Numbered from the stretch's first letter, positions 18,295 to 62,100 are shown. The stretch: DNA of 64,000 nt from a virus (IMGVR_UViG_3300043436_002205), one strand, 5' to 3'. Program-made: numbers and translations. The notes: a model not told the origin generated them from the sequence alone.

Positions 18295-18555
18295 ATGAAT
18301 TATGATAAAGACGATATCATTAAAAAGCTAAACGAAACGATCTGCAAGGTCGTTTTCACAAAAGCAAACGGTGAGACTCGAGTGATGCACTGCACTCTAT
18401 CAAATGAGTTTCTGCCAGCTCAAGTAGATCTTGAAGAAGCAATTCAAAAGAAGATTCCAAACCACACTGTGCTTGCGGTCTGGGATGTTGAAGCAAACGG
18501 ATGGCGTTCTTTCCGTTGGGACTCTCTTAAAGAGTTCAGCACAGTAGACAAATAA
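18295..18555 (+). CDS. hypothetical protein
   Basis: 86-aa ORF. Confidence 0.4.
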   Translation: MNYDKDDIIKKLNETICKVVFTKANGETRVMHCTLSNEFLPAQVDLEEAIQKKIPNHTVLAVWDVEANGWRSFRWDSLKEFSTVDK

Positions 18556-27899: not shown

Positions 27900-28141
27900 A
27901 CGATGCATATAACGTAACCGCCGATGAACTTCGTCAGTTCATCGAACGCTACGAACAGCTTGAGTCAGAAAAGAAAGACGTCACAAATTCTCAAAAGGAA
28001 TTGATGGCAGAAGCTAAGGGTCGTGGATACGACACGAAAGTCATGAAGAAGATCATCGCCATTCGTAAACGTAAAGCAGATGCAATCGCCGAAGAAGAAG
28101 CAGTTCTTGAGATGTACAAAGCTGCATTGGGTATGATCTAA
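27896..28141 (+). CDS. GapR-like DNA-binding protein (DUF2312)
   Basis: ELRQFIERYEQLESEKKD...AEAKGRGYDTKVMKKIIAIRKRK...EEEAVLEMYKAALGM closely parallels the DUF2312/GapR consensus. Confidence 0.6.
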   Translation: MNDAYNVTADELRQFIERYEQLESEKKDVTNSQKELMAEAKGRGYDTKVMKKIIAIRKRKADAIAEEEAVLEMYKAALGMI

Positions 28142-28776
28142 TGAGTAAGGAAGAAAGTAAACGCCTTATTGAAAAGATATATCCTGACTTCGATAATCGT
28201 TTTGGCGAGTGGGGCTGGTGTTCTCTAAACAAAGCTGGGTGTATTATTGACTGTATTGATGATATCTTTACTCACGTGAAAGATCCGGTATGCGTAGAGA
28301 TTGGCGTCTATGGTGGAAAGAGTGTCATTCCTGCAGTTCTAGAACTTAAGAGAATGAACTCTGGCAAGTTCTATGCGATTGATCCATGGGATAACGTAGA
28401 GGCAACCAAGGGCTATGACGGCGACAACTACAAGTTTTGGACCAACGTCAACATGCCTTGGATCTATAATGTCTTTACTACAGTCTTGGAAGAAAACGAC
28501 TGTGGAAAGTACGTAGAGATCATTCGAAAGCCAAGCGACGATGCGCCTGTTATCTTCGATATTGATTTTCTTTATATTGATGGTCAGCATACAATCCAAG
28601 CAATTCGTGATGTAAATAAGTATGCGCGCCAAGTAAAACTTGGTGGTTACTGTATTGCGGACGATATTAACTGGGGAGATGTTTCTCTCGTTCCTGATGC
28701 TCTTAAAGAGATTGGGTTCGAAGAACAACGATGGATTGACGGCGCTATCATCTTTAAGCGGACGTCTATTAAATAA
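28141..28776 (+). CDS. class I SAM-dependent methyltransferase (Methyltransf_24/CmcI-like)
   Basis: Motif I VEIGVYGG, and FLYIDGQHT. Confidence 0.6.
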   Translation: MSKEESKRLIEKIYPDFDNRFGEWGWCSLNKAGCIIDCIDDIFTHVKDPVCVEIGVYGGKSVIPAVLELKRMNSGKFYAIDPWDNVEATKGYDGDNYKFWTNVNMPWIYNVFTTVLEENDCGKYVEIIRKPSDDAPVIFDIDFLYIDGQHTIQAIRDVNKYARQVKLGGYCIADDINWGDVSLVPDALKEIGFEEQRWIDGAIIFKRTSIK

Positions 28777-44506: not shown

Positions 44507-47500
44507 TTAAGCTTGAGATTCAGACCAACCTATTCTACCAGCAACCACGAATGGATTTGCTGCGGTAACATTACTAGGATCTTCTAAAAGCTTAACAACA
44601 AGAGTTAGAACATCTGGGCCATCTGGGAATGTTCCGTCTCCACCGAGGATAGAGTTTCCAAGTGTCGCGATTTCATCGAGAGAAACTATGATATTGTTTT
44701 GTGAACGAGCGGTTGTGCCCGATGTACCCTGCGCTCTGAACGTATACACCGTAGTTCCTTCGGTGATTCTATCCGACGAATCGTGATAGATAAGTTGACT
44801 CAAGCTCGGGTTCGCAACTCTCTTCCAGTCATAGTTATTCAACTTGCCGTTCAATTTCAGAAGAACCTCGCAGCTGTGAGTCGTCAGAATACCAACGCTA
44901 TCTAAGATCAGTTGCATACGATTTATGATCTCTCTTTCTCCAAGATTTCCTGGCGTTCCGTTGTCAACGCTAGGAGCTAGACGAATGCTAATAAGAGGTT
45001 GTTCGTACACAACGGAAGTAGTTGCAGCAGAAAGAGTTACAGTGTAGTTGTTCGCTGCTGCAGTTGCTGTTGGAGGACCGTTCAATAGAATAAGGTTTCT
45101 TGTAGCAGTAGAAGCGACGTTTCCTGGAAATTGTATTCTTGAAGAAACGCTTGGAAGGTACGCTTGGAATGGAGTAGTTCTAGTGTCCAGTGGGTTTGCG
45201 GTTAGTCTTCCAGTAATTCCGTTACCAGTTATAGACACGCCAGCAGGAATCGCGTTTAATGCTGTGCTTGGAGTCACAACTTCAATAGCATAGTTTGCTG
45301 TTCTAAATTGGCCTTGTGATAGAACATAGTATAATGAAGTATTTGCAATTGCACCGTTAGCTACGATACTCGCGGTTCCTGAAATACTTAGTGTATTCGA
45401 GCTTGCAGCAAACACGTATGCACGGTCGTTGTCATATCTTCCATCCATGATCACAGAAGTACCCCAGTGAGCTAGCGCCGGAACATATGTTGGAGCTCCA
45501 ACGTTCTCAATCTCATATCTTCCTGGTATATTACCAGATCTCATATAAGCTTCGTTTTGTTTATTATTGTGTATAAATTCATGAACGTATACGACTTTAC
45601 CTTTTTGATCTTTAAAACCAAATCTCACTTTACCGGCACCATACCAGCTGTAATCCATATAGGCCATCTGTATCTTATTAGTATTAAGATAGAAACCAGT
45701 CGAGCCGGTTCCATCGCAGGTGTCAATATTCCACTGAGACTGTGGTATTTTAGTGTCAATCGTTTTTGTAATGATTACATTCGTAGCATCCGTTCCTCTA
45801 TAACTAGGAAGTATGTAAAGAAGAGTGTTACTTGCTATCTCTGATATGACATAAGTTTGGCCTTTGATGACTATTCGACCGCCTGCGTTTAATTGAGAAA
45901 GAAACTTCGTGTTTGTTCCAACAACGTTACCCTGCTTAAACTGAACAGATACAGTACCGCTTATCTGAAGGGTACTGCTTCTTCGACAGCAATATAGTTC
46001 CGAACCGTCATATTCAAAATATAGTCCGTTTTGATCATCAAAGAGGCCGCATTTTAGAAGACTGTTAGACCACGTGTTGACATAGTACTCAGGAATACCA
46101 AGCGCAAAAGTATCGGCAGGTTGGCCGCCGATGTTGACTCTAAACGAATATGGGTCTATGATGCTATCCACCGTAAAGGACCCATTCCAATAATTTTGTC
46201 CGGCAGTAACTGTAGCTCCACTTACTGTTATACTCAAATCTTCTGTCACTCTACTTGGAAAACGAGTCGTTATTATTGCCGTGTTTCCAGTGTCATACAC
46301 CATCGAGTCAATAGTAGTGGTTGGACTAAAGTTAACAGCAAAGCTAACTTGAATACCCTTACCAGACTGATAACGGAAATATTTACGTGTCTGGCGTATC
46401 ATAGTACTGTCTGGATTTGTGCTCGGAATAAGTTCAACTCCGCCATCGTATGGTCTATGAAGAGCGAAGCCATCTGCACGAAGCAAGAGAGATGTACCAA
46501 CAGCATACTCAGAGCTCGTAAGAGTGGTGTTTGCGACACTCTCTCGTGCAATAATTTCAGTTGTACTGTTTATGCTTTCTATAGTTGCGTTGTACGTCGC
46601 ACCAATACCTATAATTTCATTTAGTATAACACTAGTTCCGCTTGATGTTATATCGATTTTATTTGTGTTTGCGGTCGCTGTGGCTGGAGTTGGGTGTAGT
46701 TGAAGAGTTGTGCTACTTAAGACATTTACGTAATAAATCCCATCTTCTGTTATTCCACCCGGCGTCGAATCAGATGACACAAATACTGCATCTTCTGTAA
46801 TATATCCATGTGAAGCAGAGGTTGTAATAACGTCTGTAGTTGTGTTTATACTGCTTACTGTTACGTTCGCTCCTATAGTTTGGCTTTCATAAACAAAGAA
46901 CTCGTTTCCTCGAGTAAACAATGAAGGAAAGTTTGTGTCCGTTCCAGTGATTGTAGTCTCGCCAGCAGTAATAGTTACTGTTCCAGGTCCTAGCACTTCA
47001 CCGGATACTGTAGAAGTTGTTATGGTGTGATCTGTACCGGTACCTTTCGAAGTTAAAGTAATTGACACACCATCAATCGCATTTTGCTCAGAAGACGCCA
47101 GTCTAAACCAGTTTTTACTCACTCTTATCACATAATAAGTAGTAGAATCTGTAAGACCGCCTATTGCAGTTCCAGTTGTGTTATATTCTACGGCAGTGCC
47201 GGTTCTGAGTCCGTGTGTTAACGAATAGAAAGCACTCTTACTTAAATCTAAAAACAGATTAGGATTTATACTAATAATTCTCAAAGGCACGCTAACGTTA
47301 GCTGTAGACACCGTAAACGTGTTAGAAGTTATATTATCCACTAACGTATACACCCCATCTGCTGCACCGGGCGTCGTAGCCGAGAAGGTATGTGTGGCTG
47401 TACCGGAGGCCGCTATATCCACCAAGTCTGCTGCGCGCAAAGATCCTGATCCACTAAGAGGGCCGCCTATATCAACACGATCTGTATTTGCATTTGCGCC

Positions 47501-49663
47501 GGCTTTTGTCCAGTGAAGAGTAAGCGTTGTTGTAGTCCCAATTCTTGCCCAATACCATGCGCCGCTTCTAAGGCCAGATATCGGCGTTGAGCTTAAGTAT
47601 TGTACGGCGTCGCCGTTTGTAAAACCGTGAGCAACAGCCGTAGTGATCACGTCAGTCGAAACGTTAACAGCAGAGGATTGTGTAAATGTTCGCTCAACGG
47701 TCTTAAATCCAGCAGTAGTGGTCGCAAGTTTAAAATTGTTCTGTGATTTTTGAAAAACATAGTAAAAGTCACCACTAGTAAGACCACTGATATTAGAATT
47801 TCCATTATTGTTGTACAATACTGAAGAACCGTCTATAAGTGTATTACTAGGAGCAAATATACTATCATTGTTTAAAATAGAATAATTTCCAGATATGCGA
47901 TACTGGCCAGCTGCGCTTCCAAACGAAGTAAGGTTAATTTGTGCGCCGTTTGAAACTGACGTAAATCTAACTCTGTTGACATTAACTTTTTCAATTCTGT
48001 AAGCCGTAGAAGATGTAATACCGCCGATGGCAGTGCCAGATTGAACAGTATATGTTGCTATGTCTCCGGTTTCAAAACCGTGATTTGAAAACCATATCGT
48101 ATCAAAATCTGGAAGAAGTGACGCAGCAATCATCACAGCACCATTCGTGGTCGTTGTCATATTTAGAGTTGCGCCCGTAGGTGTAGTTCTAATCGTCATT
48201 GTTGTTGCACCACTGACAACCGAAACATAATATGGAGTGTAAGAAGATAGAAGGTCGGTTGATACGGAAACGTTGCCTGCTCCACCTGGGCCAAAGAATA
48301 AAAGTGGAACGTTATTATCAGAGTTAGTAAGATTGTGCGGTTCAACGAACGTAACAATTTCTGTTGCAGTGGCCACGCCACTAACTCTTGTGCCTCTTAT
48401 GAAAGCGCTTCTCATAACTCCACCGTCAGTTCCTGCTCCTGACAAGTTTACTCTTGTTGTGCTTCCGCTTGTAGTGGTAAGATATATAGTTGTAGGATTT
48501 ACCACTCTTACGTAGTACCAGTTAAAGGTAGTAAGACCGCCGATTACGGTATTTCCTTCACCAGCTACATACACGTATGGAAAGTTATCCGACAATCCAT
48601 GAGCAGTTGGAAACGTAATCGTCTCAACTCCAGCTCCAGCATCAATTGTGACTGCCGAATTTCTAAAGTATAGTACAGGTGAACCTTTTGATGAGTCTCC
48701 ACTGTAGTTATATGGCTGAACTGCACCAAGAGCAAACGAACCTGTTTCTCCAGTTGCAGTATTGTTTGTGCTTGTTACCGTGCTAGTAACAAAATTATTT
48801 GCTTCTACTAGAGACGCATCAATGTCTAAGTCTACAACACCTTTACTGTTTGTTAAAAAGAAGCTGGTTCCAGGTGTAAAATTTGTCGGGTATGCCGTCG
48901 TAACAGTTAGGGCAGTATTTCCAGATCCGCTCGTTGTGATTGCGGAAATTCCAGAAATATCAAATTCGGTTCCTTGATAAAGTGATCCAGCAAAGATCTG
49001 AGTGAATGTATCAAGTATACTTCCTGTAAAGTTTTGTATTGACTTTGATTTGTATTGGAACGAAGTTGTACTTATAATATTAGTTACAACAAATCCGCCA
49101 TCGCAAGAAATACTTCTAGAACCAGAAACGATCACTGGGCTTCCGCTAATAAAGTTGTGAACTTCTCCAAGTTCAACAGTGACAAGATCGCTTCCATTAA
49201 TTGTAGACATAGAAGTAATACTAAAAGAAGTGTCACCAGTTCTTGAATAGAAAGTAGGAATATTCTTAACGAGTTCAAGAGTCTCCCATTTAGTTGACTG
49301 AAGACCGTATTCGAAGTCAGTATCGATTAGGTTTTCTGGTTGACTTATTCTTAATTTTGAAACAGGATCAACAAACGTTTCACTAGGCTCAAATGATTGA
49401 TTGTCTTTTTCAACGAAGATCTGAAGCTTATCAGATGCACTCATAGCACTGCAGTCGTATGTTAAGACGAGAGTTGTGGTTTCTGCAGTCGTGTTAATGG
49501 TGTAGTTACTTATTCCCTTTGCTGAATCAGCGAACGAAAAAATGATTTGATTATCCGTAACATTCGTGATAAGCAGGAATCTCTCTAAACGATATATTCC
49601 ATCAATGACAATTGTATCCGTTGATGGTGTAAACGTATAAGATGGGATAAGTACTTTAGCCAT
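44507..49663 (-). CDS. giant virion structural protein (1718 aa; Ser/Thr/Gly/Asn-rich; probable baseplate or fibre component)
   Basis: Uninterrupted 5.2-kb ORF in the late operon upstream of gp13, at the position of wac/gp12 in T4. Beta-rich, low-complexity composition. Confidence 0.55.
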   Translation of the reverse strand: MAKVLIPSYTFTPSTDTIVIDGIYRLERFLLITNVTDNQIIFSFADSAKGISNYTINTTAETTTLVLTYDCSAMSASDKLQIFVEKDNQSFEPSETFVDPVSKLRISQPENLIDTDFEYGLQSTKWETLELVKNIPTFYSRTGDTSFSITSMSTINGSDLVTVELGEVHNFISGSPVIVSGSRSISCDGGFVVTNIISTTSFQYKSKSIQNFTGSILDTFTQIFAGSLYQGTEFDISGISAITTSGSGNTALTVTTAYPTNFTPGTSFFLTNSKGVVDLDIDASLVEANNFVTSTVTSTNNTATGETGSFALGAVQPYNYSGDSSKGSPVLYFRNSAVTIDAGAGVETITFPTAHGLSDNFPYVYVAGEGNTVIGGLTTFNWYYVRVVNPTTIYLTTTSGSTTRVNLSGAGTDGGVMRSAFIRGTRVSGVATATEIVTFVEPHNLTNSDNNVPLLFFGPGGAGNVSVSTDLLSSYTPYYVSVVSGATTMTIRTTPTGATLNMTTTTNGAVMIAASLLPDFDTIWFSNHGFETGDIATYTVQSGTAIGGITSSTAYRIEKVNVNRVRFTSVSNGAQINLTSFGSAAGQYRISGNYSILNNDSIFAPSNTLIDGSSVLYNNNGNSNISGLTSGDFYYVFQKSQNNFKLATTTAGFKTVERTFTQSSAVNVSTDVITTAVAHGFTNGDAVQYLSSTPISGLRSGAWYWARIGTTTTLTLHWTKAGANANTDRVDIGGPLSGSGSLRAADLVDIAASGTATHTFSATTPGAADGVYTLVDNITSNTFTVSTANVSVPLRIISINPNLFLDLSKSAFYSLTHGLRTGTAVEYNTTGTAIGGLTDSTTYYVIRVSKNWFRLASSEQNAIDGVSITLTSKGTGTDHTITTSTVSGEVLGPGTVTITAGETTITGTDTNFPSLFTRGNEFFVYESQTIGANVTVSSINTTTDVITTSASHGYITEDAVFVSSDSTPGGITEDGIYYVNVLSSTTLQLHPTPATATANTNKIDITSSGTSVILNEIIGIGATYNATIESINSTTEIIARESVANTTLTSSEYAVGTSLLLRADGFALHRPYDGGVELIPSTNPDSTMIRQTRKYFRYQSGKGIQVSFAVNFSPTTTIDSMVYDTGNTAIITTRFPSRVTEDLSITVSGATVTAGQNYWNGSFTVDSIIDPYSFRVNIGGQPADTFALGIPEYYVNTWSNSLLKCGLFDDQNGLYFEYDGSELYCCRRSSTLQISGTVSVQFKQGNVVGTNTKFLSQLNAGGRIVIKGQTYVISEIASNTLLYILPSYRGTDATNVIITKTIDTKIPQSQWNIDTCDGTGSTGFYLNTNKIQMAYMDYSWYGAGKVRFGFKDQKGKVVYVHEFIHNNKQNEAYMRSGNIPGRYEIENVGAPTYVPALAHWGTSVIMDGRYDNDRAYVFAASSNTLSISGTASIVANGAIANTSLYYVLSQGQFRTANYAIEVVTPSTALNAIPAGVSITGNGITGRLTANPLDTRTTPFQAYLPSVSSRIQFPGNVASTATRNLILLNGPPTATAAANNYTVTLSAATTSVVYEQPLISIRLAPSVDNGTPGNLGEREIINRMQLILDSVGILTTHSCEVLLKLNGKLNNYDWKRVANPSLSQLIYHDSSDRITEGTTVYTFRAQGTSGTTARSQNNIIVSLDEIATLGNSILGGDGTFPDGPDVLTLVVKLLEDPSNVTAANPFVVAGRIGWSESQA

Positions 49664-49700: not shown

Positions 49701-49708
49701 TATTTATA
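49701..49708 (-). promoter_or_regulatory. T4-type late promoter TATAAATA in a small hairpin loop upstream of the giant gene
   Basis: Exact motif flanked by TCTTCT/AGAAGA. Confidence 0.4.
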
Positions 49709-49795
49709 AAAGAAGACGAACCGCATTTTTCTATTGACATATGTGAAATTACTGATATAATTAGATTTAATATCTATCAGGCCGGTAGTATATAC

Positions 49796-50542
49796 TCACT
49801 CGATGCGTTCGATATCTTCTTCATAGCAGTTCTCTCCATACTGGATCTCAACAATCTTGAGTTCTTCAGACGAGTCGTTAATGAGTTGATGCCAGTCGGT
49901 TACGACAATGGTGACGAAGTCACCTTTCTTCAAAGGTTTTCTTATTCCATTGTGTAGGATTGCACCTGTACCATTCGTCACGTACCAAAGTTCGCTTCGA
50001 TACTTATGTCTCTGAAGACTCAGTGACTTACCTGGTTCGACGACGAGCTCCTTTACCTTCGTAGAAGGACCGTCTGAGTGAAGAACACGATAGTATCCCC
50101 ACTTTCTTTCAGTCTTTGGAGTCTTCCACTCAGTGAGGATCTTGCTACTCGAATTCATCTTATGAGTTCCACCGACGCCAAATACAAATGATAGTCTTTC
50201 ATCCTTAATACTCATTTCCGGAATATTAATATTCGTTCTATCCCCGCCATTTGCAAAGATGATTTCATCATTAGGAAACTTTCCTAGGCACAACTTAATT
50301 GCTTCTGATGCCCCGCCATCACTATCGTCAAAGATCATGACACTATCGACCATATGAAGGCTCTCAACGATTGCAACTCTTTCTGATAGACTCATGAATG
50401 GCTGGCCCTTTTTACGAGTTAACCATTCGTCACTATTGACTCCAACTATTAGAATATCGCCGAGCTCTTTTGCTTCGTTAAAATATGCGATGTGACCGCT
50501 GTGAATTGGATCAAAACCGCCGGTTACAAGTACTATCTTCAT
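49796..50542 (-). CDS. bifunctional sugar-phosphate nucleotidyltransferase (HldE domain-II-like) with a C-terminal cupin (mannose-6-phosphate isomerase type-II-like)
   Basis: N-terminus VLVTGGFDPIHSGHIAYFNEAKELGDILIVGVNSDEW matches heptose-1-phosphate adenylyltransferase (NGCFDILHAGH...GDRLIVAVNSD). The C-terminus (ELWYVTNGTG...VEIQYGENCYEEDIERIE) matches the cupin of mannose-1-P guanylyltransferase/isomerases. Confidence 0.65.
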   Translation of the reverse strand: MKIVLVTGGFDPIHSGHIAYFNEAKELGDILIVGVNSDEWLTRKKGQPFMSLSERVAIVESLHMVDSVMIFDDSDGGASEAIKLCLGKFPNDEIIFANGGDRTNINIPEMSIKDERLSFVFGVGGTHKMNSSSKILTEWKTPKTERKWGYYRVLHSDGPSTKVKELVVEPGKSLSLQRHKYRSELWYVTNGTGAILHNGIRKPLKKGDFVTIVVTDWHQLINDSSEELKIVEIQYGENCYEEDIERIE

Positions 50543-50545
50543 TTC

Positions 50546-52117
50546 TTACTCCGCATCAAAAAAGAACATTTGCCATAGACGTGAATTTTCTAAAGCATAT
50601 CCAAAGTATTCAGACGCTGCGTGTATCAACCCAGCATCAAATATAACTAGTCTATTATAAACGTTTCCAACCACATCAACTGGCTCGTATGGAGTTCTAT
50701 CCAGAGTAGTATGACCAGAGAATGTGCTCATAATTTCTGGATGCGAGTTATGACGTATACGTGTTGCTTTATGTGCAAACATAGATGTACCTGTCTGATA
50801 TGGCGCGTCTGGTGTTAGAAACAACATTCCTGCATACTTCTGTTCGTCGCAGTGATACACGAGAGGTTCGCCTGCGTAGCAGTACTGGAATCTACCGTTC
50901 ATTCCATACTGTTCCCACTTAGTAACCTTCATTCCCATGATCTTTTCGAACTCGTCTTTTAATCCGTTAAAGAGGTACTGTTTGTGAGTTCTTCTTCCAA
51001 TGTATCCTCTTCCTATGCCACCCTCGTCAAATTCTCTAGTCATAGCATACTTCCTTACTTCATCCGGATTTTGATAAAAGTCATCTACGACCCACAGTCT
51101 CTTCTTATAAGGATTTATAATCGAAGAGGGGTTTAATACTGATTTTTCGAATACATCCAAGTCTTTGTAATCAAAGTTTGGTAAGAAAAAGTTTTTAAGA
51201 TGCTCTCTTTCAAGTATCATTTTTGGCAACTCGCTTATTGGATACTTTTTCAAAACATGATCATTATTTCCAGAAGGTGGAACAGAACCTTCAGTAAGAG
51301 GAGTTTTGTTGAGAAAATCAATAAACGAGTCATCGCTAAATTTGATAGAACTGTTATCTTCTTTACGCATCCATTCAAACGAATCGTTGTAATGGGCAAA
51401 GACTTTTGCTTTTAAAACTCTATTTTCAACTCCGCCCATCCATGACAAGTGCCATCCAAGATCTTTAACGGGTTGTCCATTTTCTGTTATATAATGAACA
51501 GGAAATGGGTTACCGATATTTGATCTTATATTCGAAGGATTTATTTTTTTTAGTTGACTCTTCGTAGCAAGAAACATTCCGCCAGACCAATCTACTGGAT
51601 ACCCATTACTATAACAAACACGAAGGTCTGCTCTTCCTTCTAAGTATATCAACGGAACTTTAATAATAATATTTTGATTTTGCTTGCATACGTTAGAAAG
51701 ATATTGAATAACTTCAGGCTTTATAATTTCGTCAGCGTCACTATGTATGAACACGGTATCATCATCAAACTTATCTAGCGCAATTAAAAGAGCATCTTTC
51801 TGTAGGCGCTCTCTTACCTTTGCTCTCTTTGATTCAATTTCGTTACGACTATCGTTTTTCATATCCGCGGTGTCGATAGGAAGAATCACTAGATCTTCGT
51901 CTTCTGGAATATCGTGCTCTATATATACGATCTTATCTTCTGGTAAATTTAGTTTTTTTGCAATCTCACTAAATTTTCTCTCGACGTTCTGTCCGCTATG
52001 TGTTTTATTCGACTCTGCAATCACAAAATAGTCTACATAATCTTTAAGAAGATTTACTCTCAGCTCTAGTGTTTGCTCGCCATACGGAGCAAAAAATGGA
52101 AAAAAATCTACTATCAT
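50546..52117 (-). CDS. GT17-like glycosyltransferase (GnT-III family N-domain) with a C-terminal domain carrying an HxD...H motif (possible Fe/2OG oxygenase-like)
   Basis: N-terminus IVDFFPFFAPYGEQTLELRVNLLKDYVDYFVIAESNKTHSG matches bacterial GT17 (IYDCFTFFNELDLLELRLN...VDYFVIVES..TF.G). DADE acidic motif. C-terminal YHCDEQ...FAH. Confidence 0.5.
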   Translation of the reverse strand: MIVDFFPFFAPYGEQTLELRVNLLKDYVDYFVIAESNKTHSGQNVERKFSEIAKKLNLPEDKIVYIEHDIPEDEDLVILPIDTADMKNDSRNEIESKRAKVRERLQKDALLIALDKFDDDTVFIHSDADEIIKPEVIQYLSNVCKQNQNIIIKVPLIYLEGRADLRVCYSNGYPVDWSGGMFLATKSQLKKINPSNIRSNIGNPFPVHYITENGQPVKDLGWHLSWMGGVENRVLKAKVFAHYNDSFEWMRKEDNSSIKFSDDSFIDFLNKTPLTEGSVPPSGNNDHVLKKYPISELPKMILEREHLKNFFLPNFDYKDLDVFEKSVLNPSSIINPYKKRLWVVDDFYQNPDEVRKYAMTREFDEGGIGRGYIGRRTHKQYLFNGLKDEFEKIMGMKVTKWEQYGMNGRFQYCYAGEPLVYHCDEQKYAGMLFLTPDAPYQTGTSMFAHKATRIRHNSHPEIMSTFSGHTTLDRTPYEPVDVVGNVYNRLVIFDAGLIHAASEYFGYALENSRLWQMFFFDAE

Positions 52118-52118
52118 A

Positions 52119-53135
52119 TTATAACCTTTCTAAAACAGTTAAACCGTTGTTGTTTGTTAAGAATTTTTTGAATCTCCAGTGAGGGTTAACCATGAGAAAC
52201 TCTATTATAGCTGGAAGAAGACCTTGAGAAGTACTGTATGCTTGGCCTCCCTCGTTCTTTAGACCAAAAGTATTTGTATCGTGGAACACCATGTATTTTC
52301 TAGACTTATTTCCATGAAGTGAAAGCTCTTGTTTTAACTGCTCGTATGTATGCCAAGTATCAATGAAGAGCAGGTCTGTTTCTTCGATATCAATCTTAAG
52401 AACGTCTGCTTCGATGAATGTAGCATCCTTTCCAGCTTTCTTTGCCTCGTTGATTAGATCTACTACTTTTTGATCTGTTACGATGTCATATGAAATTAGT
52501 CTCGCATCAACTCTTAAGAATGCTCGTGTACTTATTCCGGTTCTTACACCCATCTCTATTATATGATTACAATCTTTAGCTAGTTCATATAGAACTGGAA
52601 GGTGTTCGTGAATGTCACTAGGAGACGAAGCCGCGATCGCGAACTCTTTCTCTATCATGTGTTTGAAATTTTTTTGCGGCTGGTCTTCCGAATGTCTAAT
52701 AGTACCAACCGAAGGAATATACTTTTTCATTATGTCGTTCAAATTTACCATATCATATATCTCACTCTTAGTGTTCTTTTCTTTTGCTTTAAGAAAGAAC
52801 GGATGTATGTTCATAAAATCATCTTCTTTTCCAATATATTTATATATTAGCAGTAACATATAAAACGCATCTATTCTTGACGAGTCAACGTTCAATGCAT
52901 TCTTTAAAATTTTCTCTGCCATCGCAAAACTATCGCCATGTTCTATCAATGACTTTGCAGCTGACACTAGAGAATTATAGATAAGTTCTACGTCATCTGT
53001 CCTATCTGCCGCTCTTAGAAAGTATCCACAGGCAGAAGAATACTGCTGAAGGATTTCATACTCTTTTCCAAGATCGTAGTTGTACTGAGCGTTTCCTGGA
53101 TCACTTATATAAGTGTTAATCTTTTCTTTAAGCAT
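52119..53135 (-). CDS. SAM-dependent methyltransferase (Methyltransf_24-like) with an N-terminal TPR-like module shared with the next gene
   Basis: C-terminal IIEMGVRTGIST, LLFIDTWHTYE, YMVFHDT. N-terminal ISDPGNAQYNYDLGKEYEILQQYSSACGYFLRAADRTDD is homologous to NPSDPEVSFTLGSYYEDLGQYSSAGSYYLRTAERTEN in the 53137..54753 protein. Confidence 0.55.
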   Translation of the reverse strand: MLKEKINTYISDPGNAQYNYDLGKEYEILQQYSSACGYFLRAADRTDDVELIYNSLVSAAKSLIEHGDSFAMAEKILKNALNVDSSRIDAFYMLLLIYKYIGKEDDFMNIHPFFLKAKEKNTKSEIYDMVNLNDIMKKYIPSVGTIRHSEDQPQKNFKHMIEKEFAIAASSPSDIHEHLPVLYELAKDCNHIIEMGVRTGISTRAFLRVDARLISYDIVTDQKVVDLINEAKKAGKDATFIEADVLKIDIEETDLLFIDTWHTYEQLKQELSLHGNKSRKYMVFHDTNTFGLKNEGGQAYSTSQGLLPAIIEFLMVNPHWRFKKFLTNNNGLTVLERL

Positions 53136-53136
53136 G

Positions 53137-54753
53137 TTACCCTCTCAAAATAAAATCATCAAACACGTCTCTAGGTATTCTTAGTATGTAAGAAGCATTA
53201 TCTTCATAGCCATAGGATATAAGTACGTCATTCTTATGGTAAGCAATACCAGATACAAACTCAATAGTACCACCCATCATAGTAAAGTCACGAGTAGAGC
53301 ATACGATGTTCCAGTTTCTATCCCAGACTACGATTCGCTGAAAGTATCTTCTTCCGCTATCCTTGCCGCTATATAAGCACTCGTGAGTAACACCTATGTA
53401 GTAATCGTCATTCCAAGGAAGAATATGAGAACCGCCTCTTAAGTCTCGAGGAAACCGATAAGTCTTAGACTCTTCCAAGTGAACGGTCTCGGTCTTTAGA
53501 GTTTTAGTATCAAATGAAACTATCTGAGTTGGGTTAGACCACTTCACCCATTGGAACGGTTTATCTAGAACAGGCATCCAGTTCTTTTCACAATAGGTAT
53601 CGTCGTTTCCTGGCGCAGGAATTGAAAAACGTTCTACTTCGACTACGCCATTCTCGGTTATCTCGATCTGTGAAAGATCCATACGACCCTTACCTTCTAG
53701 TATGTGGTCCCTTCTTACTCCACATAGATACTTCTTTCCATCCCACTCTACAAACCTAGCATCTTCCAATCCAATGTAGAACCAGTTAGGATTCTCATTG
53801 AGTCTCATGTCAACGCGATCTGCAGTTATAACATTAAGTCGATCGTCTAATCTGCACACGACGTTTTCGGATCTGATATTAATGTCGTTGTCGGAATATA
53901 GATATTTGAGAGGACCGTCTTTTTCTGGAAACTTATTACTGTAGTAGAGTGTGTAGTTTGTTTCTCTTAAGTTTACAAAGACTCTCTCTTTATCATCAAC
54001 AAACACGGAAGCATTTGTAGTCGCAACTCCTTTAGAAACAGAATGAGGAACTACGATAGAATGCACGGATCCTCCCTTTTCCAAAACATATTTGGAAAGA
54101 CTAGAACTATATACATCCTTTAAATCTGAAGAGTTGTGATAGTAGTTAGCTCTTTCGTTTTCTTTTTTGATCTGCATAAGATTCTTTAACGCATCTCTTT
54201 TTATGTGGTTCGGAACGTCCTTGATCTTTGTTAACGATAGTAATATCTCTCTTGCTTCTTCAATGAAACCGCTGTTAAAACCAGCATGCGCTTTTTGCAA
54301 AAGAAGTGAATACTTTCCTTCAAAAATAGTTTTAAATCTCAAGGGTTTTAAATTATCTATGTCTTTAATAGATAATGCGGTGCACACTAGAGAGTACGCG
54401 GTGAACCACTTCTCATCGTTCGTTTCGTTATTTTCTATGAACTTACTTAGAATTAAATATGCTTCGGGTCTATCAGGCATATGCGATATCGCAAAGTTTA
54501 GCATACCCTTTGTTGAATATCTACGTCTTCCTAGTGAAGCAGTACATGCTGCAAACCTTATTAGGCTCTCATATGACAGAAGACGGTTCTCTGTTCTTTC
54601 TGCTGTTCTTAAGTAATAAGAACCAGCCGAAGAATACTGCCCCAGATCCTCATAGTAAGATCCTAGAGTAAAACTTACTTCTGGATCACTAGGGTTAAGA
54701 GCAAACATCGTGATCAATTGTTTCATTTCTTCAAGCATATTAACCCTTTGCAT
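53137..54753 (-). CDS. unknown enzyme-like protein (paralogue A: TPR-like N-module plus conserved beta-rich core)
   Basis: Core shares CEKNWMPVLD and RIVVWDRNWNIV...FTMMGG with the downstream paralogue. The extra N-terminal about 190 aa is shared with the methyltransferase. Confidence 0.45.
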   Translation of the reverse strand: MQRVNMLEEMKQLITMFALNPSDPEVSFTLGSYYEDLGQYSSAGSYYLRTAERTENRLLSYESLIRFAACTASLGRRRYSTKGMLNFAISHMPDRPEAYLILSKFIENNETNDEKWFTAYSLVCTALSIKDIDNLKPLRFKTIFEGKYSLLLQKAHAGFNSGFIEEAREILLSLTKIKDVPNHIKRDALKNLMQIKKENERANYYHNSSDLKDVYSSSLSKYVLEKGGSVHSIVVPHSVSKGVATTNASVFVDDKERVFVNLRETNYTLYYSNKFPEKDGPLKYLYSDNDINIRSENVVCRLDDRLNVITADRVDMRLNENPNWFYIGLEDARFVEWDGKKYLCGVRRDHILEGKGRMDLSQIEITENGVVEVERFSIPAPGNDDTYCEKNWMPVLDKPFQWVKWSNPTQIVSFDTKTLKTETVHLEESKTYRFPRDLRGGSHILPWNDDYYIGVTHECLYSGKDSGRRYFQRIVVWDRNWNIVCSTRDFTMMGGTIEFVSGIAYHKNDVLISYGYEDNASYILRIPRDVFDDFILRG

Positions 54754-55804
54754 AATTTAAAAACTTTTCTACGGTTGCATATGGAGTTTCTAATACGTAT
54801 GCAACGTTGTCTTGAAAACCAAACGTGATGAGGATCTTTCCTTTATGGTGACACATTCCGCACGTAAACTCAGTATGTCCTCCCATAATGGTAAAGTCAT
54901 CAGAGAAACCTACTATGTCCCAGTTCCTATCCCATACTATAAAGCGATGCCGATATACTCCGTCCTTTACTCGCTTCTCTCCTTTAAACAGATCCACCTC
55001 GTGAGTAAGAGCAATATAGTGATCACCGAACGGAATGACTTGCGATCCTCCACGAGGTTCTGTAAGACCCTTAGGATTTCCATTAAACAGACGCTTCTCG
55101 CTAAGAAAGGCTGTTTCTGCTTTAGATTTTTCTATATCTACAAGAACTACTTCTGTTGGGTTGCACCACTTTATGTACGTATAGTTTTGATCTAGAACTG
55201 GCATCCAATTCTTTTCGCAATAAGACTTGTCTTCACCAGGTGCACCGATACGAGTTCTTGACACTTCTATGACTTCGTTTTCCAGAACTTCTATCTCTGA
55301 CAGTTCCATACGACCCTGTCCGTTTGTAGTCGTATCTCTACGAACTCCAGTCATATAGAGCTTTCCGCCCCATTCCACGAGTCTTGCGTCTTCAAGTCCT
55401 ACGAAGTCCCAGATTGGTTCTTTGTCCAATCTTGAAGTATCTACGTGATTGAATCTAGTAATGTTATAGTTATCATCAAGTTCGCAGTAGTAGTTTTCAG
55501 TGCGAAGCTTCATATCGTCTTCGGGGTGAAGATATGTTAGAGGCCCCCAAGGATGGACGAATTTCTTTTTCTCTGAATGATAGAATAGATAGTTGGTGCA
55601 TCTTACATTAACAATCAATTTATCATTATGAACCAAGATGGATGGGTTCATGAGACCAGTTCCACCGGTGAGTTCGACTGGAACGATAAGCGGATGAATG
55701 CTGCCGCCGTCCGTTAATGCTTGTTGTGCTAGAGTGATAGAAGTTTCATATCTGTATGTTTGCTCTACTTGATATGAATCTTTTATGTGTTCAAAAAATG
55801 ACAT
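54740..55804 (-). CDS. unknown enzyme-like protein (paralogue B of the 53137..54753 core)
   Basis: CEKNWMPVLD and RFIVWDRNWDIV...FTIMGG conserved with paralogue A. First gene of the apparent operon. Confidence 0.45.
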   Translation of the reverse strand: MSFFEHIKDSYQVEQTYRYETSITLAQQALTDGGSIHPLIVPVELTGGTGLMNPSILVHNDKLIVNVRCTNYLFYHSEKKKFVHPWGPLTYLHPEDDMKLRTENYYCELDDNYNITRFNHVDTSRLDKEPIWDFVGLEDARLVEWGGKLYMTGVRRDTTTNGQGRMELSEIEVLENEVIEVSRTRIGAPGEDKSYCEKNWMPVLDQNYTYIKWCNPTEVVLVDIEKSKAETAFLSEKRLFNGNPKGLTEPRGGSQVIPFGDHYIALTHEVDLFKGEKRVKDGVYRHRFIVWDRNWDIVGFSDDFTIMGGHTEFTCGMCHHKGKILITFGFQDNVAYVLETPYATVEKFLNYAKG

Positions 55805-55876
55805 AGTGTAATAAGTCTCCGCATAATATAGTTATCTCAACTACATTTATTTATCTGCCACGATAGCGTTGATTAT

Positions 55877-56146
55877 TTAACCCAATGCGATTGCGTATGC
55901 AACTGCGTCTGCCGTCGTTACAGGTGTATCCCAAAAGACACTGTTTGCAGAAGAGTGTAATACTTGTCCAAAAGATCCAGGTGAATTTGTGCTGTCATAT
56001 ATGGCTCCAGTTATTCTAACATTGCCTTCCACGTGCAGTTTTTGAGATGGGATTAACGTCCCAATGCCTATATTTCCTGCGCCATCAGCGGTTATTCCGC
56101 CAATACTAACATTAACTCCTACTAACGTCCTTAACGATACTGGCAT
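55877..56146 (-). CDS. small fibre-associated protein (Gly-rich beta-repeat)
   Basis: Start overlaps the stop of the collagen-like fibre gene (TAATG). Sequence GNIGIGTLIPSQKLHVEGNVRITG is fibre-like. Confidence 0.35.
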   Translation of the reverse strand: MPVSLRTLVGVNVSIGGITADGAGNIGIGTLIPSQKLHVEGNVRITGAIYDSTNSPGSFGQVLHSSANSVFWDTPVTTADAVAYAIALG

Positions 56147-59100
56147 TAGTTATCTCTCTTTATGTTTTCGATATCGGCTTTTAGTCTCTTAACTGCTTCT
56201 ATTAAGATCGCAATAAGTGGAGTATATGCAACCGTCTTCCAACCGTTTCCGTTTGTTTTCACGAGTTCTGGCATTATCTTTTCAAGTTCCTGCGCAATCA
56301 CACCGTAACTCTTAGTTTTGTTATCTTTCCAATCGAAACTATATGTATTTATTCTTTCTAGAATATCAAAGCTGTTATCAATAGACATAAAGTTTTCTTT
56401 AAACGTTTCGTCTGAAAGCGAGTTGAAGTTAGTCGCCGAGAGATCACCGGTCGAAGGATTGAAATACAGTTTAGTTGTAGAAACTTCTGCCGTTTGATTC
56501 GATCCAGCCGCTGCTACGAATACTGGGTAATGAGTCGCATTAGTGGTGGTATCGTCAGACGCGTTAATCGTAGTAGACGGTCCTGATGTACCTTGGATAC
56601 CTTGAACACCCTGTGAACCTGTTCCGCCAATACCTTGAGAGCCAACCCCTTGAATACCTTGAATGCCTTGAGTACCCTGAGTACCCTGAGTACCCTGAAG
56701 ACCTTGTGTACCCCGAGTACCCTGAAGACCCTGTGTCCCTTGAGTTCCCTGAAGACCTTGAGTACCCTGAGTACCCTGAAGACCTTGTGTACCCTGAGTA
56801 CCCTGAAGACCCTGCGTTCCTTGAGTTCCTTGAGTTCCCTGAAGACCTTGAGATCCAGTCGTACCTTGGGTTCCTTGAGTACCTTGAATACCTTGAATAC
56901 CTTGGAAACCTTGAGTTCCAGTTGTACCTTGTGTTCCCTGAGTTCCTTGAATACCTTGGAAACCTTGTCTACCTTGTAGGCCTTGAGATCCAGTCGTACC
57001 TTGGGTTCCTTGAGTACCTTGAATACCTTGAATACCTTGGAGACCTTGGGATCCAGTTGTACCCTGAGTTCCTTGGGTACCTTGAATACCTTGGAAACCT
57101 TGTCTACCTTGTAGGCCTTGAGTACCCTGCGTGCCCTGAGTCCCTTGTGTACCTTGTGTTCCCTGAGTTCCTTGAATACCTTGGAAACCTTGAGTTCCAG
57201 TTGTACCTTGAATACCTTGAATACCCTGCGGGCCATATGCATACAATGCAGCTGTAAAATATGTGCCGTTTGCACTGCTATTAATGTTCTGAGAAGTTGT
57301 ATTTCCAGTAAATGCAGTAACTTCGACATAATCTGTTGTACCGTTAAAATATGCAATAGTGGAAAATGTCATTGCATAACCAGAACCAGTCATGATTTGA
57401 TCTTGACTAATTGCTAGCTGCGTAGTTCCATTTTTTCTAAGTTGGATATTGTTTTGATTATTAGTTACTGCGCCAGCATCCCACCAAACCTGAGCAGTAA
57501 TATTGTAATAACCGGCAACAGTTGGTTGGAACCTATTTGAAGCGAACCAATTCTGTGGATCAAAATCATCTGAAAATGTAACAACTGTATCGGCGCCGTT
57601 GGTGACAGTTTGTGCTATGTCTTTAACTGCACGAACTACATAACTACCGGGTGTAAGCAAACCGCCATCAAATCCTTGTACACCCTGTCTACCCTGTAGA
57701 CCTTGAGTTCCCTGAGGACCCTGTAGACCTTGAGTTCCCTGAGTACCCTGTAGACCTTGAGTACCTTGAGTTCCCTGCGTTCCTTGTGTTCCTTGAAGAC
57801 CTTGAGTACCTTGAGTTCCCTGAAGACCTTGAGTGCCTTGAGTTCCCTGCGTTCCTTGTGTTCCTTGAAGACCTTGAGTGCCTTGAGTTCCCTGAAGACC
57901 TTGAGTGCCTTGAGTTCCCTGAAGACCTTGAGTACCTTGTCTACCTTGGAGTCCTTGAGGACCCTGTACACCTTGAGTGCCTTGAGTTCCCTGAAGACCT
58001 TGAGTACCTTGTCTACCTTGGAGTCCTTGAGGACCCTGTACACCTTGAATACCTTGAACACCAATTGCAGTAAATATTTCCCAAGTAGAGCCATCATAAG
58101 CAAATTCTACAGAGAAACCTTTCACATCCATTGCAACGTCGTCTGAAACTCCTTCGATTGTGCTTCCGTTTCTTCCAACCGTAAGGTTGGTGGCCGCCCA
58201 GTCGGCTGGATCTGCAATAATTACAAAATCGCCTGTAGAAGGAGCAGCCGGAAGATTAATTGTGAATGTTCCCCCAGAAGTGTCTGCTAGAATTCTGTCT
58301 CCGGAAACTGCGGTGTATGTAGTTGTTTTTACTAACCAATTATTAAAACCACCATCCAGACCTTGTAATCCTTGAACACCAGTTCCTTGAAGACCCTGTG
58401 TCCCTTGAGTGCCCTGAGTTCCTTGAAGACCCTGTGTCCCTTGAGTGCCCTGAGTTCCTTGAAGACCTTGGGTTCCTTGAGTACCCTGAGTACCCTGAAG
58501 ACCTTGGGTTCCTTGTGTTCCTTGAGTACCCTGAGTACCCTGAAGACCTTGGGTTCCTTGTGTTCCTTGAGTTCCTTGAGTACCCTGAAGCCCTTGGGTT
58601 CCCTGAGTTCCTTGCGTACCTTGAGTTCCCTGAGTTCCTTGCGTACCTTGTGTGCCCTGAAGACCTTGAGTGCCCTGAGTTCCTTGTATACCTTGAGTTC
58701 CTTGAGTTCCTTGAGTACCCTGAAGACCCTGTGTTCCCTGAGTTCCCTGAGTTCCTTGAGTACCTTGAGTTCCTTGAGTACCTTGAGTTCCTTGAGTACC
58801 CTGAAGACCCTGCTCGCCTTGAAGACCTTGAGTGCCTTGTGTACCCTGAGTACCCTGAGTACCTTGAGTACCCTGAAGACCCTGAGTACCTTGAGTACCT
58901 TGAGTACCTTGAGTACCCTGAAGACCCTGTGTTCCCTGAGTTCCCTGAGTACCCTGAAGACCCTGTGTTCCCTGAAGACCCTGTGTTCCCTGAGTACCTT
59001 GAGTACCCTGAGTACCTTGAGTACCCTGAAGACCCTGTGTTCCCTGAAGACCCTGTGTTCCCTGAGTACCTTGAGTACCCTGAGTACCTTGAGTACCCTG

Positions 59101-62100
59101 AAGACCCTGAGTACCCTGAAGACCCTGAGTACCCTGCGGGCCTTGTAGGTTTGTTGGAGATCCAACCCATTCACCGCTCGAATTAATTACTGGCCCAACA
59201 CTTTGGATAGTGACTCCGCTTACTACGATGTTAGCGGTGTTGTCTATAGAGAATTCTACACCATTAAGTTCTAATCCAGCCCCTGCTTTATAAATCTGAG
59301 AAGAACTTATCTGAGAGAAGTTTATACCCGTGCTTCCAAAAACGATAGTGCCTTCAGTCGTCATCACGTAAAGTTGACCAGCCCCAGTGTCACCTTCAAG
59401 AACATAGAATGCGTCACCTTTTCCTAGGTTACCAGGACTGCTTGGACTATAAGAATCCGCATCCGTTGAACGAATAAGAACCCAAGCAGTGTTCGCAGAT
59501 CCAGTGTCTGAAACTGTATATACGCCGTTATGTGCAGTATTTGCTTGTTGATATAATAAGACACGATCATCAATATCTAAAGTAATGCCATCTATGATAA
59601 GAGTTGCTTGTGTTCCGACATTCGTAAGAGTTGCACCTACACCAGAAGTACCATTATCATATGCAGCATTAAGATTTATCGGTGATTCAACTCTGACTGG
59701 ATCGTGATAGTGTATAGCTGCAGATACAAGAGTATCTACATACTGTTTTGTGACAGCTTGTAGATTTCCCGTTGGATCTTGAGCGAGAGTTAAGAAACCG
59801 CTAGTCATTGCGGTACTAACGTCCGATCTTAGGAATTGTAGACTGTCTAATCCATCGAGAGTAGCAGCATCACCTGCGGTAGAACCTTGAATACCTTGCA
59901 AGCCTTGATCACCTTGAAGCCCTTGCATGCCCTGTGGGCCTTGTGTTCCTTGGATACCTTGCTCGCCCTGAACACCCTGAAGTCCTTGTGAACCCTGGGT
60001 TCCCTGCGTACCTTGTGTTCCTTGAAGACCTTGCTCACCTTGTACCCCTTGAGTTCCCTGTGTTCCTTGAGTTCCTTGCGTACCTTGGATACCTTGCTCG
60101 CCCTGAACACCCTGAAGTCCTTGTGAACCCTGGGTTCCCTGCGTACCTTGTGTTCCTTGTGTTCCTTGTAGACCTTGTGTCCCCTGTGTACCTTGTGTTC
60201 CTTGAAGACCCTGGGTCCCTTGTGTTCCTTGAAGACCCTGAGTTCCTTGTAGAACAAACAGTTCCCATTCAGCAGTATTAACCGCAGGGTCCTGGTAAAC
60301 CGATGTGATGACTTGCTTTGATACATAAGTGTTACCATCAACTGGGCTTACAGCAACAGTATCTTTTACATAGCTAGCTTCTGTCCATAATCCAATGTAA
60401 TTTAATACGAGCTCTATGCCTTGGAGTCCCTGTAGACCCTGTGTTCCTTGCTCACCCTGAAGACCTTGAGTACCTTGGGTTCCTTGTTCACCTTGAAGAC
60501 CCTGAGTACCTTGGGTTCCTTGTTCACCTTGAAGACCTTGCGTTCCTTGAGTACCCTGTGTCCCTTGAGTTCCTTGAGTTCCCTGAAGACCCTGCTCGCC
60601 TTGAAGACCTTGAGTGCCTTGGGTTCCTTGAGTTCCCTGAAGACCTTGGGTTCCTTGTGTACCCTGTGTCCCTTGAGTTCCTTGAGTTCCTTGAGTTCCC
60701 TGAAGACCCTGCTCGCCTTGAAGACCTTGAGTGCCTTGTGTACCCTGTGTCCCTTGAGTTCCTTGAGTTCCCTGAAGACCCTGCTCGCCTTGAAGACCTT
60801 GAGTGCCTTGGGTTCCTTGAAGACCTTGAGTGCCTTGGGTTCCTTGAGTACCTTGGGTTCCCTGAAGACCCTGCTCGCCTTGAAGACCTTGAGTGCCTTG
60901 GGTTCCTTGAAGACCTTGAGTGCCTTGGGTTCCTTGAGTACCTTGGGTTCCTTGTTCACCTTGAAGACCTTGCGTTCCTTGAGTACCCTGAAGACCTTGC
61001 GTTCCTTGCGTACCCTGAAGACCTTGCGTTCCTTGCGTACCCTGAAGACCCTGTGTCCCTTGAGTTCCCTGAATACCTTGAGTTCCTTGTGTACCCGTAC
61101 CCTGCGTCCCTTGAAGACCCTGCATGCCCTGGGCGCCTTCATCCCCATCTACTGCTGCAGTACCTTGTGTACCCTGAGAACCCTGAAGACCTTGTAAGCC
61201 CTGTGGGCTCTGTGTACCTTGAGTTCCCTGCTCTCCTTGTAGACCCTGAAGACCTTGAGTACCTTGTGTTCCTTGAGTACCCTGAAGACCTTGTTCGCCT
61301 TGGAGACCTTGGGTTCCCTGAGTTCCCTGAGTTCCTTGTGTACCCTGCGTCCCTTGAGTTCCTTGCTCGCCTTGAAGACCTTGGGTGCCTTGGGTTCCCT
61401 GAGTTCCTTGCGTCCCTTGAGTTCCTTGGGTGCCTTGGGTGCCTTGCGTCCCTTGAGTTCCTTGCTCGCCTTGAAGACCTTGGGTGCCTTGCGTCCCTTG
61501 CGTCCCTTGAGTTCCCTGAAGACCTTGCGTTCCCTGCGTCCCTTGTTCGCCTTGAAGACCTTGCGTTCCCTGAGTTCCCTGAGTTCCTTGCGTTCCTTGA
61601 GTACCTTGGGTTCCCTGAAGACCCTGTGTCCCTTGAGTTCCCTGAATACCTTGAGTTCCTTGCGTACCCTGAACACCCTGAAGACCAGTGTCACCGATGT
61701 CACCTGTACGAGCAAACGTGATGATAACATCTTCATTATTATTGAATGAAGAAACAGAACCGGATACATAAGATCCGTCCACTGTGAAGTAACCAGTTTC
61801 TTCTGTTATTGAAGATATCGTGAATAACACGAAACGAGAAGAATTAGTGCGGTTTGATACTCTAAAGTGACCCTTAATAGTAGATGTAGAGTCGTCTATC
61901 GTTCTTAAGAAACTTTGTATGTCTGTACTGTTATCATCCGCGTCATCGATGTACATACTAAGAGCGGTAGTGATATCGGTGTTGCTAAATTTAAGTTTTC
62001 CAACTCCAGGATCGGTTGCATCTACAGAATTGCTAAAGGTGTAATCAAATGAAGCGCCGCCAAAGTTTCCGTCAATACCCTGAGTACCCTGTGAACCCTG

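Follow-up and report, generated by a model that had tools for sequence, protein, structure and literature searches.

When a phage carries genes for sugar activation and transfer among its own structural genes, do the products serve the host envelope or the virion? This question was raised by positions 49796 to 55804 (minus strand) of a 64,000-nt stretch of viral DNA, IMGVR_UViG_3300043436_002205 (this whole stretch is referred to below as the window), whose source was a divergent T4-like cyanomyovirus; its capsid gene DNA was ~74% identical to that of Synechococcus phages, and pstS and phoH were both encoded in the window. The span comprised exactly five minus-strand open reading frames (ORFs), namely P5 (354 aa), P4 (538 aa), P3 (338 aa), P2 (523 aa), and P1 (248 aa), and the junctions P5/P4, P4/P3, P3/P2, and P2/P1 measured −14, 1, 1, and 3 nt, respectively, tight enough to indicate an operon-like arrangement. 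An initial annotation had counted six genes here, while the nearest additional ORF (55877 to 56146) lay outside the span; its placement of the genes between a giant structural gene and a collagen-like fibre gene agreed with the flanks observed. The answer tentatively favored, at a probability somewhat short of even, is a phage-specific mobile cassette of soluble cytoplasmic enzymes, late-expressed, that would decorate the adjacent collagen-like or Ser/Thr-rich giant virion proteins with a manno-type glycan. Fibre decoration was ranked best because of the tetratricopeptide repeat (TPR)-like adaptors, the oxygenase–glycosyltransferase fusion of LH3/L230 type, the partners of the radical S-adenosylmethionine (radical-SAM)/SPASM class, the restriction to phages, and the nesting among fibre genes. 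It was further supported by the lack of transmembrane segments in P1 to P5 (maximum 19-residue hydropathy ≤1.14 in all five) and of any defence family in a PADLOC scan.

P5 (54740 to 55804, minus strand) and the C-terminal 320 residues of P4 (53137 to 54753, minus strand; N-terminal TPR-like adaptor at residues ~1 to 205 and P5 paralogue at 216 to 535) were paralogues with 45% identity (E 2e-100), and the similarity included the motifs CEKNWMPVLD and VWDRNW..GG from which a paralogous pair of enzymes had been proposed. The AlphaFold2 (AF2) model of P5 (pLDDT 81, pTM 0.86) adopted a five-bladed β-propeller, in keeping with the earlier suggestion of such a fold; it was closest to glycoside hydrolase family 130 (GH130) structures, its nearest folds were phosphorylases, and the comparison scores were 17.8 for Leishmania 2b4w, presumably an enzyme of glycosyltransferase family 108 (GT108) type, and at most 18.2 for GH43. 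At the sequence level, P5 scored 16.4 bits against Pfam GH130 (PF04041; E 0.0044, over 50 residues), under the cut-off of 26 bits, and shared 13 to 16% identity with GH130/GT108 enzymes. Searches of the PDB with the P5 sequence, a P5 family profile, and a P5 fragment gave no useful chain, and a P2 family profile likewise gave nothing useful among PDB sequences, so P5 and P2 were placed by structure prediction only. Six residues were invariant in 24 P5-family sequences: D139 (within GLEDAR), R155, R156, R165, K198, and H268; they may include the Asp proton donor and the basic phosphate-binding residues expected of GH130 enzymes. Known GH130 and GT108 members can run as β-mannosyltransferases using mannose 1-phosphate (Man-1-P) or GDP-mannose (PMC12814180), and the P5/P4 pair represents a phage-only GH130/GT108 propeller branch that probably works synthetically, P5 being a putative β-mannosyl phosphorylase or transferase. 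Unlike the described GH130/GT108 enzymes, the P5/P4 subfamily was phage-restricted and TPR-paired, and one paralogue itself carried a TPR domain.

P1 (49796 to 50542, minus strand) joined an HxGH-class sugar/polyol-phosphate nucleotidyltransferase (residues 1 to 125) to a type II phosphomannose isomerase (PMI) cupin (residues 143 to 248), much as the initial annotation had read it, i.e., an HldE-domain-II-like nucleotidyltransferase fused to a mannose-6-phosphate-isomerase cupin. The nucleotidyltransferase half matched CTP_transf_like (3.2e-15) and rfaE domain II (2.5e-22); it stayed under the HldE domain II equivalog cut-off (TIGR02199, 79.3 bits against 181.5) and passed the superfamily model TIGR00125 only (62.3 against 27.7). 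The cupin matched MannoseP_isomer (PF01050) at 71.7 bits (7.3e-20). P1 and the bifunctional PMI/GDP-mannose pyrophosphorylases (PMI-GMP; ManC/AlgA/XanB) shared a C-terminal PMI cupin behind a nucleotidyltransferase, but the P1 N-terminal domain was CTP_transf_like of the unrelated HxGH class (HldE domain II/TagD) instead of NTP_transferase (PF00483), and the type II PMI-GMP model TIGR01479 scored 65 against a cut-off of 373. P1 was a new nucleotidyltransferase–PMI fusion, and it was absent from the deposited phage records in the collection searched.

P2 (50546 to 52117, minus strand) consisted of a GT17-like GT-A glycosyltransferase (residues 1 to 330) and a DUF6445 2-oxoglutarate (2OG)-Fe(II) oxygenase (residues 340 to 523). 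The N-terminal region matched GT17 (PF04724) at 37.8 bits (cut-off 26; 1.5e-9) over profile positions 87 to 198 of 348, and the C-terminal region matched DUF6445 (PF20043) at 32.5 bits (cut-off 24; 1.1e-7); D127xD129, the H422xD424...H499 iron triad, and R513, the putative basic 2OG-binding residue, were invariant across 27 homologues, so that the prediction of a GT17 glycosyltransferase with an extra HxD...H domain was borne out and the extra domain was given a family. The top Foldseek match of the AF2 model (pLDDT 87.8) was human collagen lysyl hydroxylase LH3 (6fxr; E 2.4e-9, ~10% identity), and the alignment ran co-linearly through the GT-A and double-stranded β-helix (DSBH) halves over about 600 columns. 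The glycosyltransferase half matched GT-A enzymes, with 'family 17' proteins among the viral models, and the C-terminal domain by itself matched the protein prolyl hydroxylases OGFOD1 and PHD2, as well as 3dkq, at E about 3e-6. Among the viral models of BFVD, P2 matched two-domain giant-virus proteins and 'procollagen-lysine 5-dioxygenase' entries from uncultured Caudovirales and Megavirus.

P2 and LH3 (PLOD3)/Mimivirus L230 therefore had in common an N-terminal GT-A glycosyltransferase and a C-terminal 2OG-Fe(II) DSBH oxygenase in one polypeptide, and the P2 gene lay near a collagen-like gene; the L230-type enzyme of Mimivirus modifies the virus's own collagen (PMC5802723, PMC6082870). They differed in that identity was ~10%, the glycosyltransferase half belonged to GT17, the oxygenase was DUF6445 with OGFOD1 and PHD2 nearest, and the adjacent collagen was built of G-T-Q triplets without the X-Lys-Gly or X-Pro-Gly sites expected of an LH3/L230 substrate. 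This fibre (2092 aa; 56146 to 62424, minus strand), the upstream neighbour of the cassette and a candidate substrate, had 405 G-X-Y triplets, the X position being Thr in 229 of them and the Y position Gln in 381; Lys and Pro made up 1.3% and 1.5% of the whole protein, respectively. Classical collagen Lys/Pro hydroxylation of this fibre as the role of P2 was rejected because its repeats were G-T-Q, and the likeness of P2 to LH3/L230 is best taken as analogy, not membership. In RefSeq, homologues of DUF6445 are named 'minor coat protein', one such case being that of Syn9 (GenBank gp52).

P3 (52119 to 53135, minus strand) had a TPR-like adaptor (residues ~1 to 140) followed by a class-I SAM methyltransferase-like domain (residues ~185 to 330). 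The assignment to Methyltransf_24 held as far as a methyltransferase-like match was concerned (E 3e-4) and failed as a family call (22.1 bits, under the 26.3 cut-off); a weak RsmA match and a Gly-rich EMGVRTG motif were also seen, and the adaptor was joined in relatives to clear methyltransferases. P3 is probably a class-I methyltransferase of uncertain family, and its methyltransferase domain showed no similarity to the Methyltransf_24 domain fused to P2 homologues. The N-termini of P3 and P4 shared a common TPR-like domain of ~140 aa with 30% identity (E 5e-12).

A large homologue search with the isolated TPR adaptor gave no matches, and adaptor fusions were counted by a local census of relatives' loci. 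The partners found there were (i) GT17–DUF6445 (P0135), DUF6445 alone, and the GH130-like domain and (ii) FkbM and other methyltransferases, radical-SAM/SPASM, GT2, and GT25. Two relatives (L001, 12962 to 15115; L045, 5710 to 8562) carried the TPR adaptor, an FkbM methyltransferase, and radical-SAM/SPASM in single proteins of 717 to 950 aa. SPASM enzymes mostly act on peptides or proteins. In its behaviour, the adaptor resembles a shared module by which a varying range of modifying enzymes is targeted or docked. P2 homologues were likewise fused to methyltransferases or to the TPR adaptor, and P2–P1 fusions occurred as 851- to 854-aa proteins with GT17, nucleotidyltransferase, and cupin (P0211 among them). 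Such fusions among the GT17, DUF6445, methyltransferase, TPR, and nucleotidyltransferase–cupin domains indicated that the cassette genes form one functional unit, and the proposal of a single pathway unit was upheld by these Rosetta-stone fusions together with the all-or-none presence of the genes upstream of gp13 (see below).

From the closest folds of P5, which were phosphorylases, a catabolic role could be argued: the GH130-like enzymes would phosphorolyse β-mannosides to Man-1-P, and the PMI cupin would feed glycolysis, fuelling replication as auxiliary metabolism. GH130 phosphorylase plus PMI is a known bacterial route of mannan catabolism, as cited in PMC12801897. This scheme fits two domains only and leaves unexplained the nucleotidyltransferase, GT17, methyltransferase, oxygenase, and TPR adaptors with their fusions, as well as the fibre-region location; moreover, no transporter or glycosidase was present. 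Picocyanobacteria are not known to have a β-mannan store, and catabolism was considered very improbable.

The chemistry was coherent around manno-sugars: a PMI cupin, a nucleotidyltransferase of manno-heptose/polyol-phosphate type, two GH130/GT108-fold enzymes, a GT17-type transferase, and a methyltransferase. The eukaryotic namesake of GT17 acts on β-mannose. By homology, the P1 cupin would convert fructose 6-phosphate to mannose 6-phosphate; after a host phosphomannomutase step, the nucleotidyltransferase half of P1 would yield a nucleoside diphosphate (NDP)-manno-sugar. The prolyl-hydroxylase-like 2OG oxygenase at the P2 C-terminus would hydroxylate the target residue or the glycan, the GT17-like half would transfer sugar with inversion, P5 and P4 would add β-mannosyl units from Man-1-P or NDP-mannose, P3 would methylate the product, and the TPR-like N-termini of P3 and P4 may dock the enzymes to one another or to a shared protein substrate.

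The P5 family comprised 5584 clusters at 90% identity, and the cassette was found on at least 596 IMG/VR viral contigs. Cellular contexts (flagellin, S-layer, and O-antigen islands) were sought in a pattern scan of prokaryote genomes (one genome each for 185,579 species), and only 13 contigs were returned, all from metagenome-assembled genomes (MAGs); all 13 showed a phage-type cassette or collagen-like runs, and two of them also carried neck/tail genes of gp13–gp18 type, so that the contigs resembled phage DNA. Only two of 50,697 deposited phage records carried the cassette: S-SCSM2R (cultured; PQ898602), which had the core pair annotated as 'MGP' and 'CcmH/NrfG', and DSL-LC02 (metagenome-assembled), with annotations of 'beta-mannosyltransferase' and FkbM methyltransferases. 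Of 87 loci, 86 had a TPR-adaptor gene adjoining the GH130-like gene, and 50 had DUF6445 nearby.

In the window, the cassette was part of a minus-strand late module spanning about 28.8 to 64 kb, which contained gp23, gp22, gp21, portal, tail tube, sheath, terminase, gp15, an 800-aa baseplate/fibre protein, gp14, gp13, the 1718-aa virion protein, the five cassette genes, the 89-aa ORF, and the 2092-aa fibre. The 1718-aa virion structural protein (44507 to 49663, minus strand), the downstream neighbour and second candidate substrate, had 24.6% Ser+Thr. The location among fibre genes was kept in relatives: of the 41 distinct loci in which the upstream sequence extended for at least 3 kb, 39 had a co-oriented upstream neighbour, 30 had an ORF of at least 700 aa no more than 10 kb upstream, and 26 had a collagen-like ORF there. 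gp13 and gp14 lay directly downstream in ~16 loci. In close relatives (P5 88% identity), the order P5–P4–P3–P2–P1 was kept, gp13 followed directly, and the 1718-aa-like gene was located upstream instead; thus, the cassette was conserved while the fibre genes shuffled around it. When 17 distinct loci with at least 6 kb of sequence upstream of gp13 were compared, 10 carried the GH130-like gene plus all the other module domains and 7 carried none, i.e., the cassette is gained or lost as a unit. In the same gp13-anchored control, a collagen-like association was seen in 5 of 10 loci with the cassette versus 2 of 7 without it, a sample too small to be informative. Of 72 distinct contigs (among IMG/VR loci L013 to L087), about 31 ended within 2.5 kb upstream of the GH130-like gene, which suggested that assemblies systematically break in the repetitive collagen-like fibre genes and that the counts probably understate the fibre linkage.

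The 3′ boundary of the cassette offered a different account of this position. A σ70 promoter TTGACA-16-TATAAT with a short palindrome was located at 49734 to 49761 on the plus strand, antisense to the cassette, with the palindrome at 49762 to 49776 and a terminator-like hairpin at 49910 to 49924 (plus strand); it was the sole perfect TTGACA-16-TATAAT in 64 kb, with 0.01 expected per window. In diverged relatives, the position and hexamers of this antisense promoter were kept, the spacer and palindrome covaried, and the element was sometimes tandem; relatives that lack the cassette had the element as well, upstream of gp13. Judged by these features, it looks like a PeSL (promoter-early stem-loop) element, which fits the gain-and-loss behaviour of the cassette, and it may give an early antisense RNA of ~160 nt over the late cassette. 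PeSL elements mediate module shuffling in T4-type phages (PMC2839356, PMC4122927). The fibre position could accordingly reflect insertion into a hyperplastic PeSL-bounded region, with the TPR-targeted toolkit modifying a non-virion phage or host protein, a small molecule, or a peptide; the presence or absence of the cassette among close relatives marked it as accessory and agreed with such insertion. Nevertheless, the cassette adjoined fibre genes even away from gp13, which indicated linkage to fibres rather than to one insertion site, and a non-virion target was considered improbable.

Promoter signals bore on the timing of expression. A T4-type late-promoter-like motif, GATAAATA, was present at 55848 to 55855 (minus strand), about 44 nt upstream of the P5 start codon; at its 3′ end, the cassette was delimited by TATAAATA at 49701 to 49708 (minus strand), the late promoter of the 1718-aa gene. 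The window had eight perfect TATAAATA sites, all of them on the minus strand within 30 to 53 kb and mostly just upstream of late-gene starts. One perfect TATAAATA at 52837 to 52844 (minus strand) fell within the coding region of P3, ~720 nt ahead of P2; it may act as an internal late promoter or have arisen by chance. Among 63 distinct loci of relatives, 20 had ATAAATA in the 120 nt preceding the GH130-like gene, compared with 2.9% of background windows (~11-fold enrichment). Late expression is likely for this phage, with a candidate NATAAATA site, yet it is not universal to the cassette, because relatives without the motif often had σ70-like promoters and the two deposited records had other gene contexts. 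The late timing proposed in the initial annotation is thus likely for this phage, given the GATAAATA site, and did not extend to relatives as a whole.

Several observations weighed against fibre decoration. As many as 43 of 63 relatives had no late motif, and several of them had strong σ70-like promoters upstream of the GH130-like gene (a few of these near-perfect). The DSL-LC02 cassette was antisense to fibre genes, and that of S-SCSM2R sat beside nrdAB and ligase. The collagen repeats were G-T-Q with almost no Pro or Lys, leaving classical hydroxylase substrates absent. Elsewhere in cyanophages, DUF6445 adjoined GT11 and GT25 genes, and its substrate may accordingly be a sugar instead of a protein. 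Lipid-linked glycans at the membrane are likewise possible substrates of soluble glycosyltransferases. There was no direct evidence for glycosylated cyanophage virions, and the GH130-like ORF194 of S-SCSM2R was not among the 23 proteins of its virion proteome; this absence was neutral to weakly negative, as enzymes need not be packaged. The same proteome (PMC12801897) included a 2OG-Fe(II) oxygenase annotated as prolyl 3,4-dihydroxylase Ofd1 (ORF269).

Some of these points would be expected if the enzymes instead remodelled the host envelope during infection, altering the lipopolysaccharide (LPS) O-chain, exopolysaccharide, a glycosylated pilus, or the S-layer, whether for superinfection block, for avoiding re-adsorption of progeny to lysing cells, or for altered grazer recognition. 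Early-type σ70-like promoters in several relatives, the non-structural location of the S-SCSM2R cassette among early or middle genes, the co-location of DUF6445 with GT11 and GT25 'LPS' clusters in S-SSM7 and Sf-FS3, and further LPS-type sugar genes in the window (two GT4, an epimerase, and a dehydrogenase) all pointed in that direction, which is also the published reading for glycosyltransferase and rfaE genes in the fibre hypervariable region (PMC7029224, PMC12801897). By contrast, P1 to P5 had no membrane-spanning segment, and no Pfam or PHROG match to Gtr, Wzx, Wzy, or Oac-type components was found for the cassette proteins, so the integral-membrane flippase, transferase, or acetylase parts that characterize GtrABC/Oac/Wzy seroconversion modules were lacking. 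The GH130-like plus TPR subfamily was essentially absent from cellular genomes, unlike typical host-derived LPS genes; the cassette was consistently co-oriented and nested among fibre and neck genes; and the adaptor–radical-SAM/SPASM fusions and the prolyl-hydroxylase-like oxygenase pointed to protein substrates. Marine Synechococcus LPS is not known to contain heptose, which leaves the HldE-II-like enzyme with no obvious LPS role. Envelope remodelling was judged less likely than fibre decoration, though a serious contender.

A broader form of fibre decoration, put forward with more reserve than the cassette-level proposal, is that of an autonomous combinatorial toolkit modifying the collagen-like or giant fibres of aquatic T4-like phages, in which GH130/GT108-type β-mannosylation, GT17 transfer, 2OG-dependent hydroxylation, methylation, and, in relatives, radical-SAM steps would all be steered by the shared TPR adaptor. 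Virion glycosylation by viral enzymes is itself known: mycobacteriophages glycosylate their own virions (Freeman 2023, as cited in PMC12801897), and in giant viruses the virus's own collagens and fibrils undergo glycosylation and hydroxylation by viral enzymes (PMC5802723, PMC9614988). As in those systems, glycosyltransferases and methyltransferases were virus-encoded together with structural genes, and the products there decorate capsid, tail, or fibril proteins (cited in PMC12801897; review PMC9614988). They differed in enzyme families, host (here cyanobacteria), and virion type and were without the TPR adaptor or GH130-like enzymes. Sugar genes nested among tail-fibre genes of aquatic T4-like phages have also been reported: in pelagimyophages and cyanomyophages, the tail-fibre hypervariable region contains glycosyltransferase and rfaE genes, which were read as host O-chain modification (Zaragoza-Solas 2020, PMC7029224), but that study stressed GT8 and did not define a GH130-like/TPR/GT17–DSBH/nucleotidyltransferase–PMI cassette. 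The statement that this was not a described system accordingly applied only in part, since the tail-fibre glycosyltransferase/rfaE genes (PMC7029224) and the S-SCSM2R GH130-like gene annotated 'MGP' (PMC12801897) were already published. Apparent novelty lies in the combination of enzymes, in the architecture built on a shared adaptor, and in how widely the cassette is spread among aquatic T4-like phages.

Cyanophages and related marine and freshwater myoviruses control major primary producers, and their host range is set by the tail fibres. If fibres are decorated as proposed, host-range prediction from fibre sequence alone misses a determinant, many 'LPS/cell-wall' auxiliary metabolic gene annotations in aquatic phages need re-reading, and a chemical layer is added to host-range variation and recognition evasion in the ocean's most abundant myoviruses. 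Among bacterial viruses, the system would then correspond to the glycosylation of fibrils and collagens by giant viruses; its shared TPR adaptor appears to recruit many different modifying enzymes.

The pathway had been described as self-contained, and this had to be withdrawn because the window held further sugar genes. These were dispersed on the plus strand outside the late module, at 3177 to 4184, 4195 to 4953, 15420 to 16355, 18555 to 19508, and 28141 to 28776, and the set comprised two GT4, a 252-aa UDP-glucose/GDP-mannose dehydrogenase-like ORF (which may be truncated or split), an NDP-sugar epimerase/dehydratase, and another Methyltransf_24 (2.4e-12), the last adjoining gp23, which is on the opposite strand. 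Other accessory genes of the plus strand at 1485 to 2450, 6031 to 6987, 11417 to 12559, and 26315 to 27271 were the pstS phosphate-binding protein, SPFH/Band-7, T4 Rnl1-type RNA ligase, and DUF932 genes. The 89-aa ORF at 55877 to 56146 (minus strand) began on the last base of the stop codon of the 2092-aa fibre gene (one-base overlap); it had weak PHROG tail-fibre matches, homologous stretches lay beside or within collagen-like fibre genes in three relatives (L001, L045, and L068), and possible identities are a fibre tip, a chaperone, or a fragment split off from the fibre gene.

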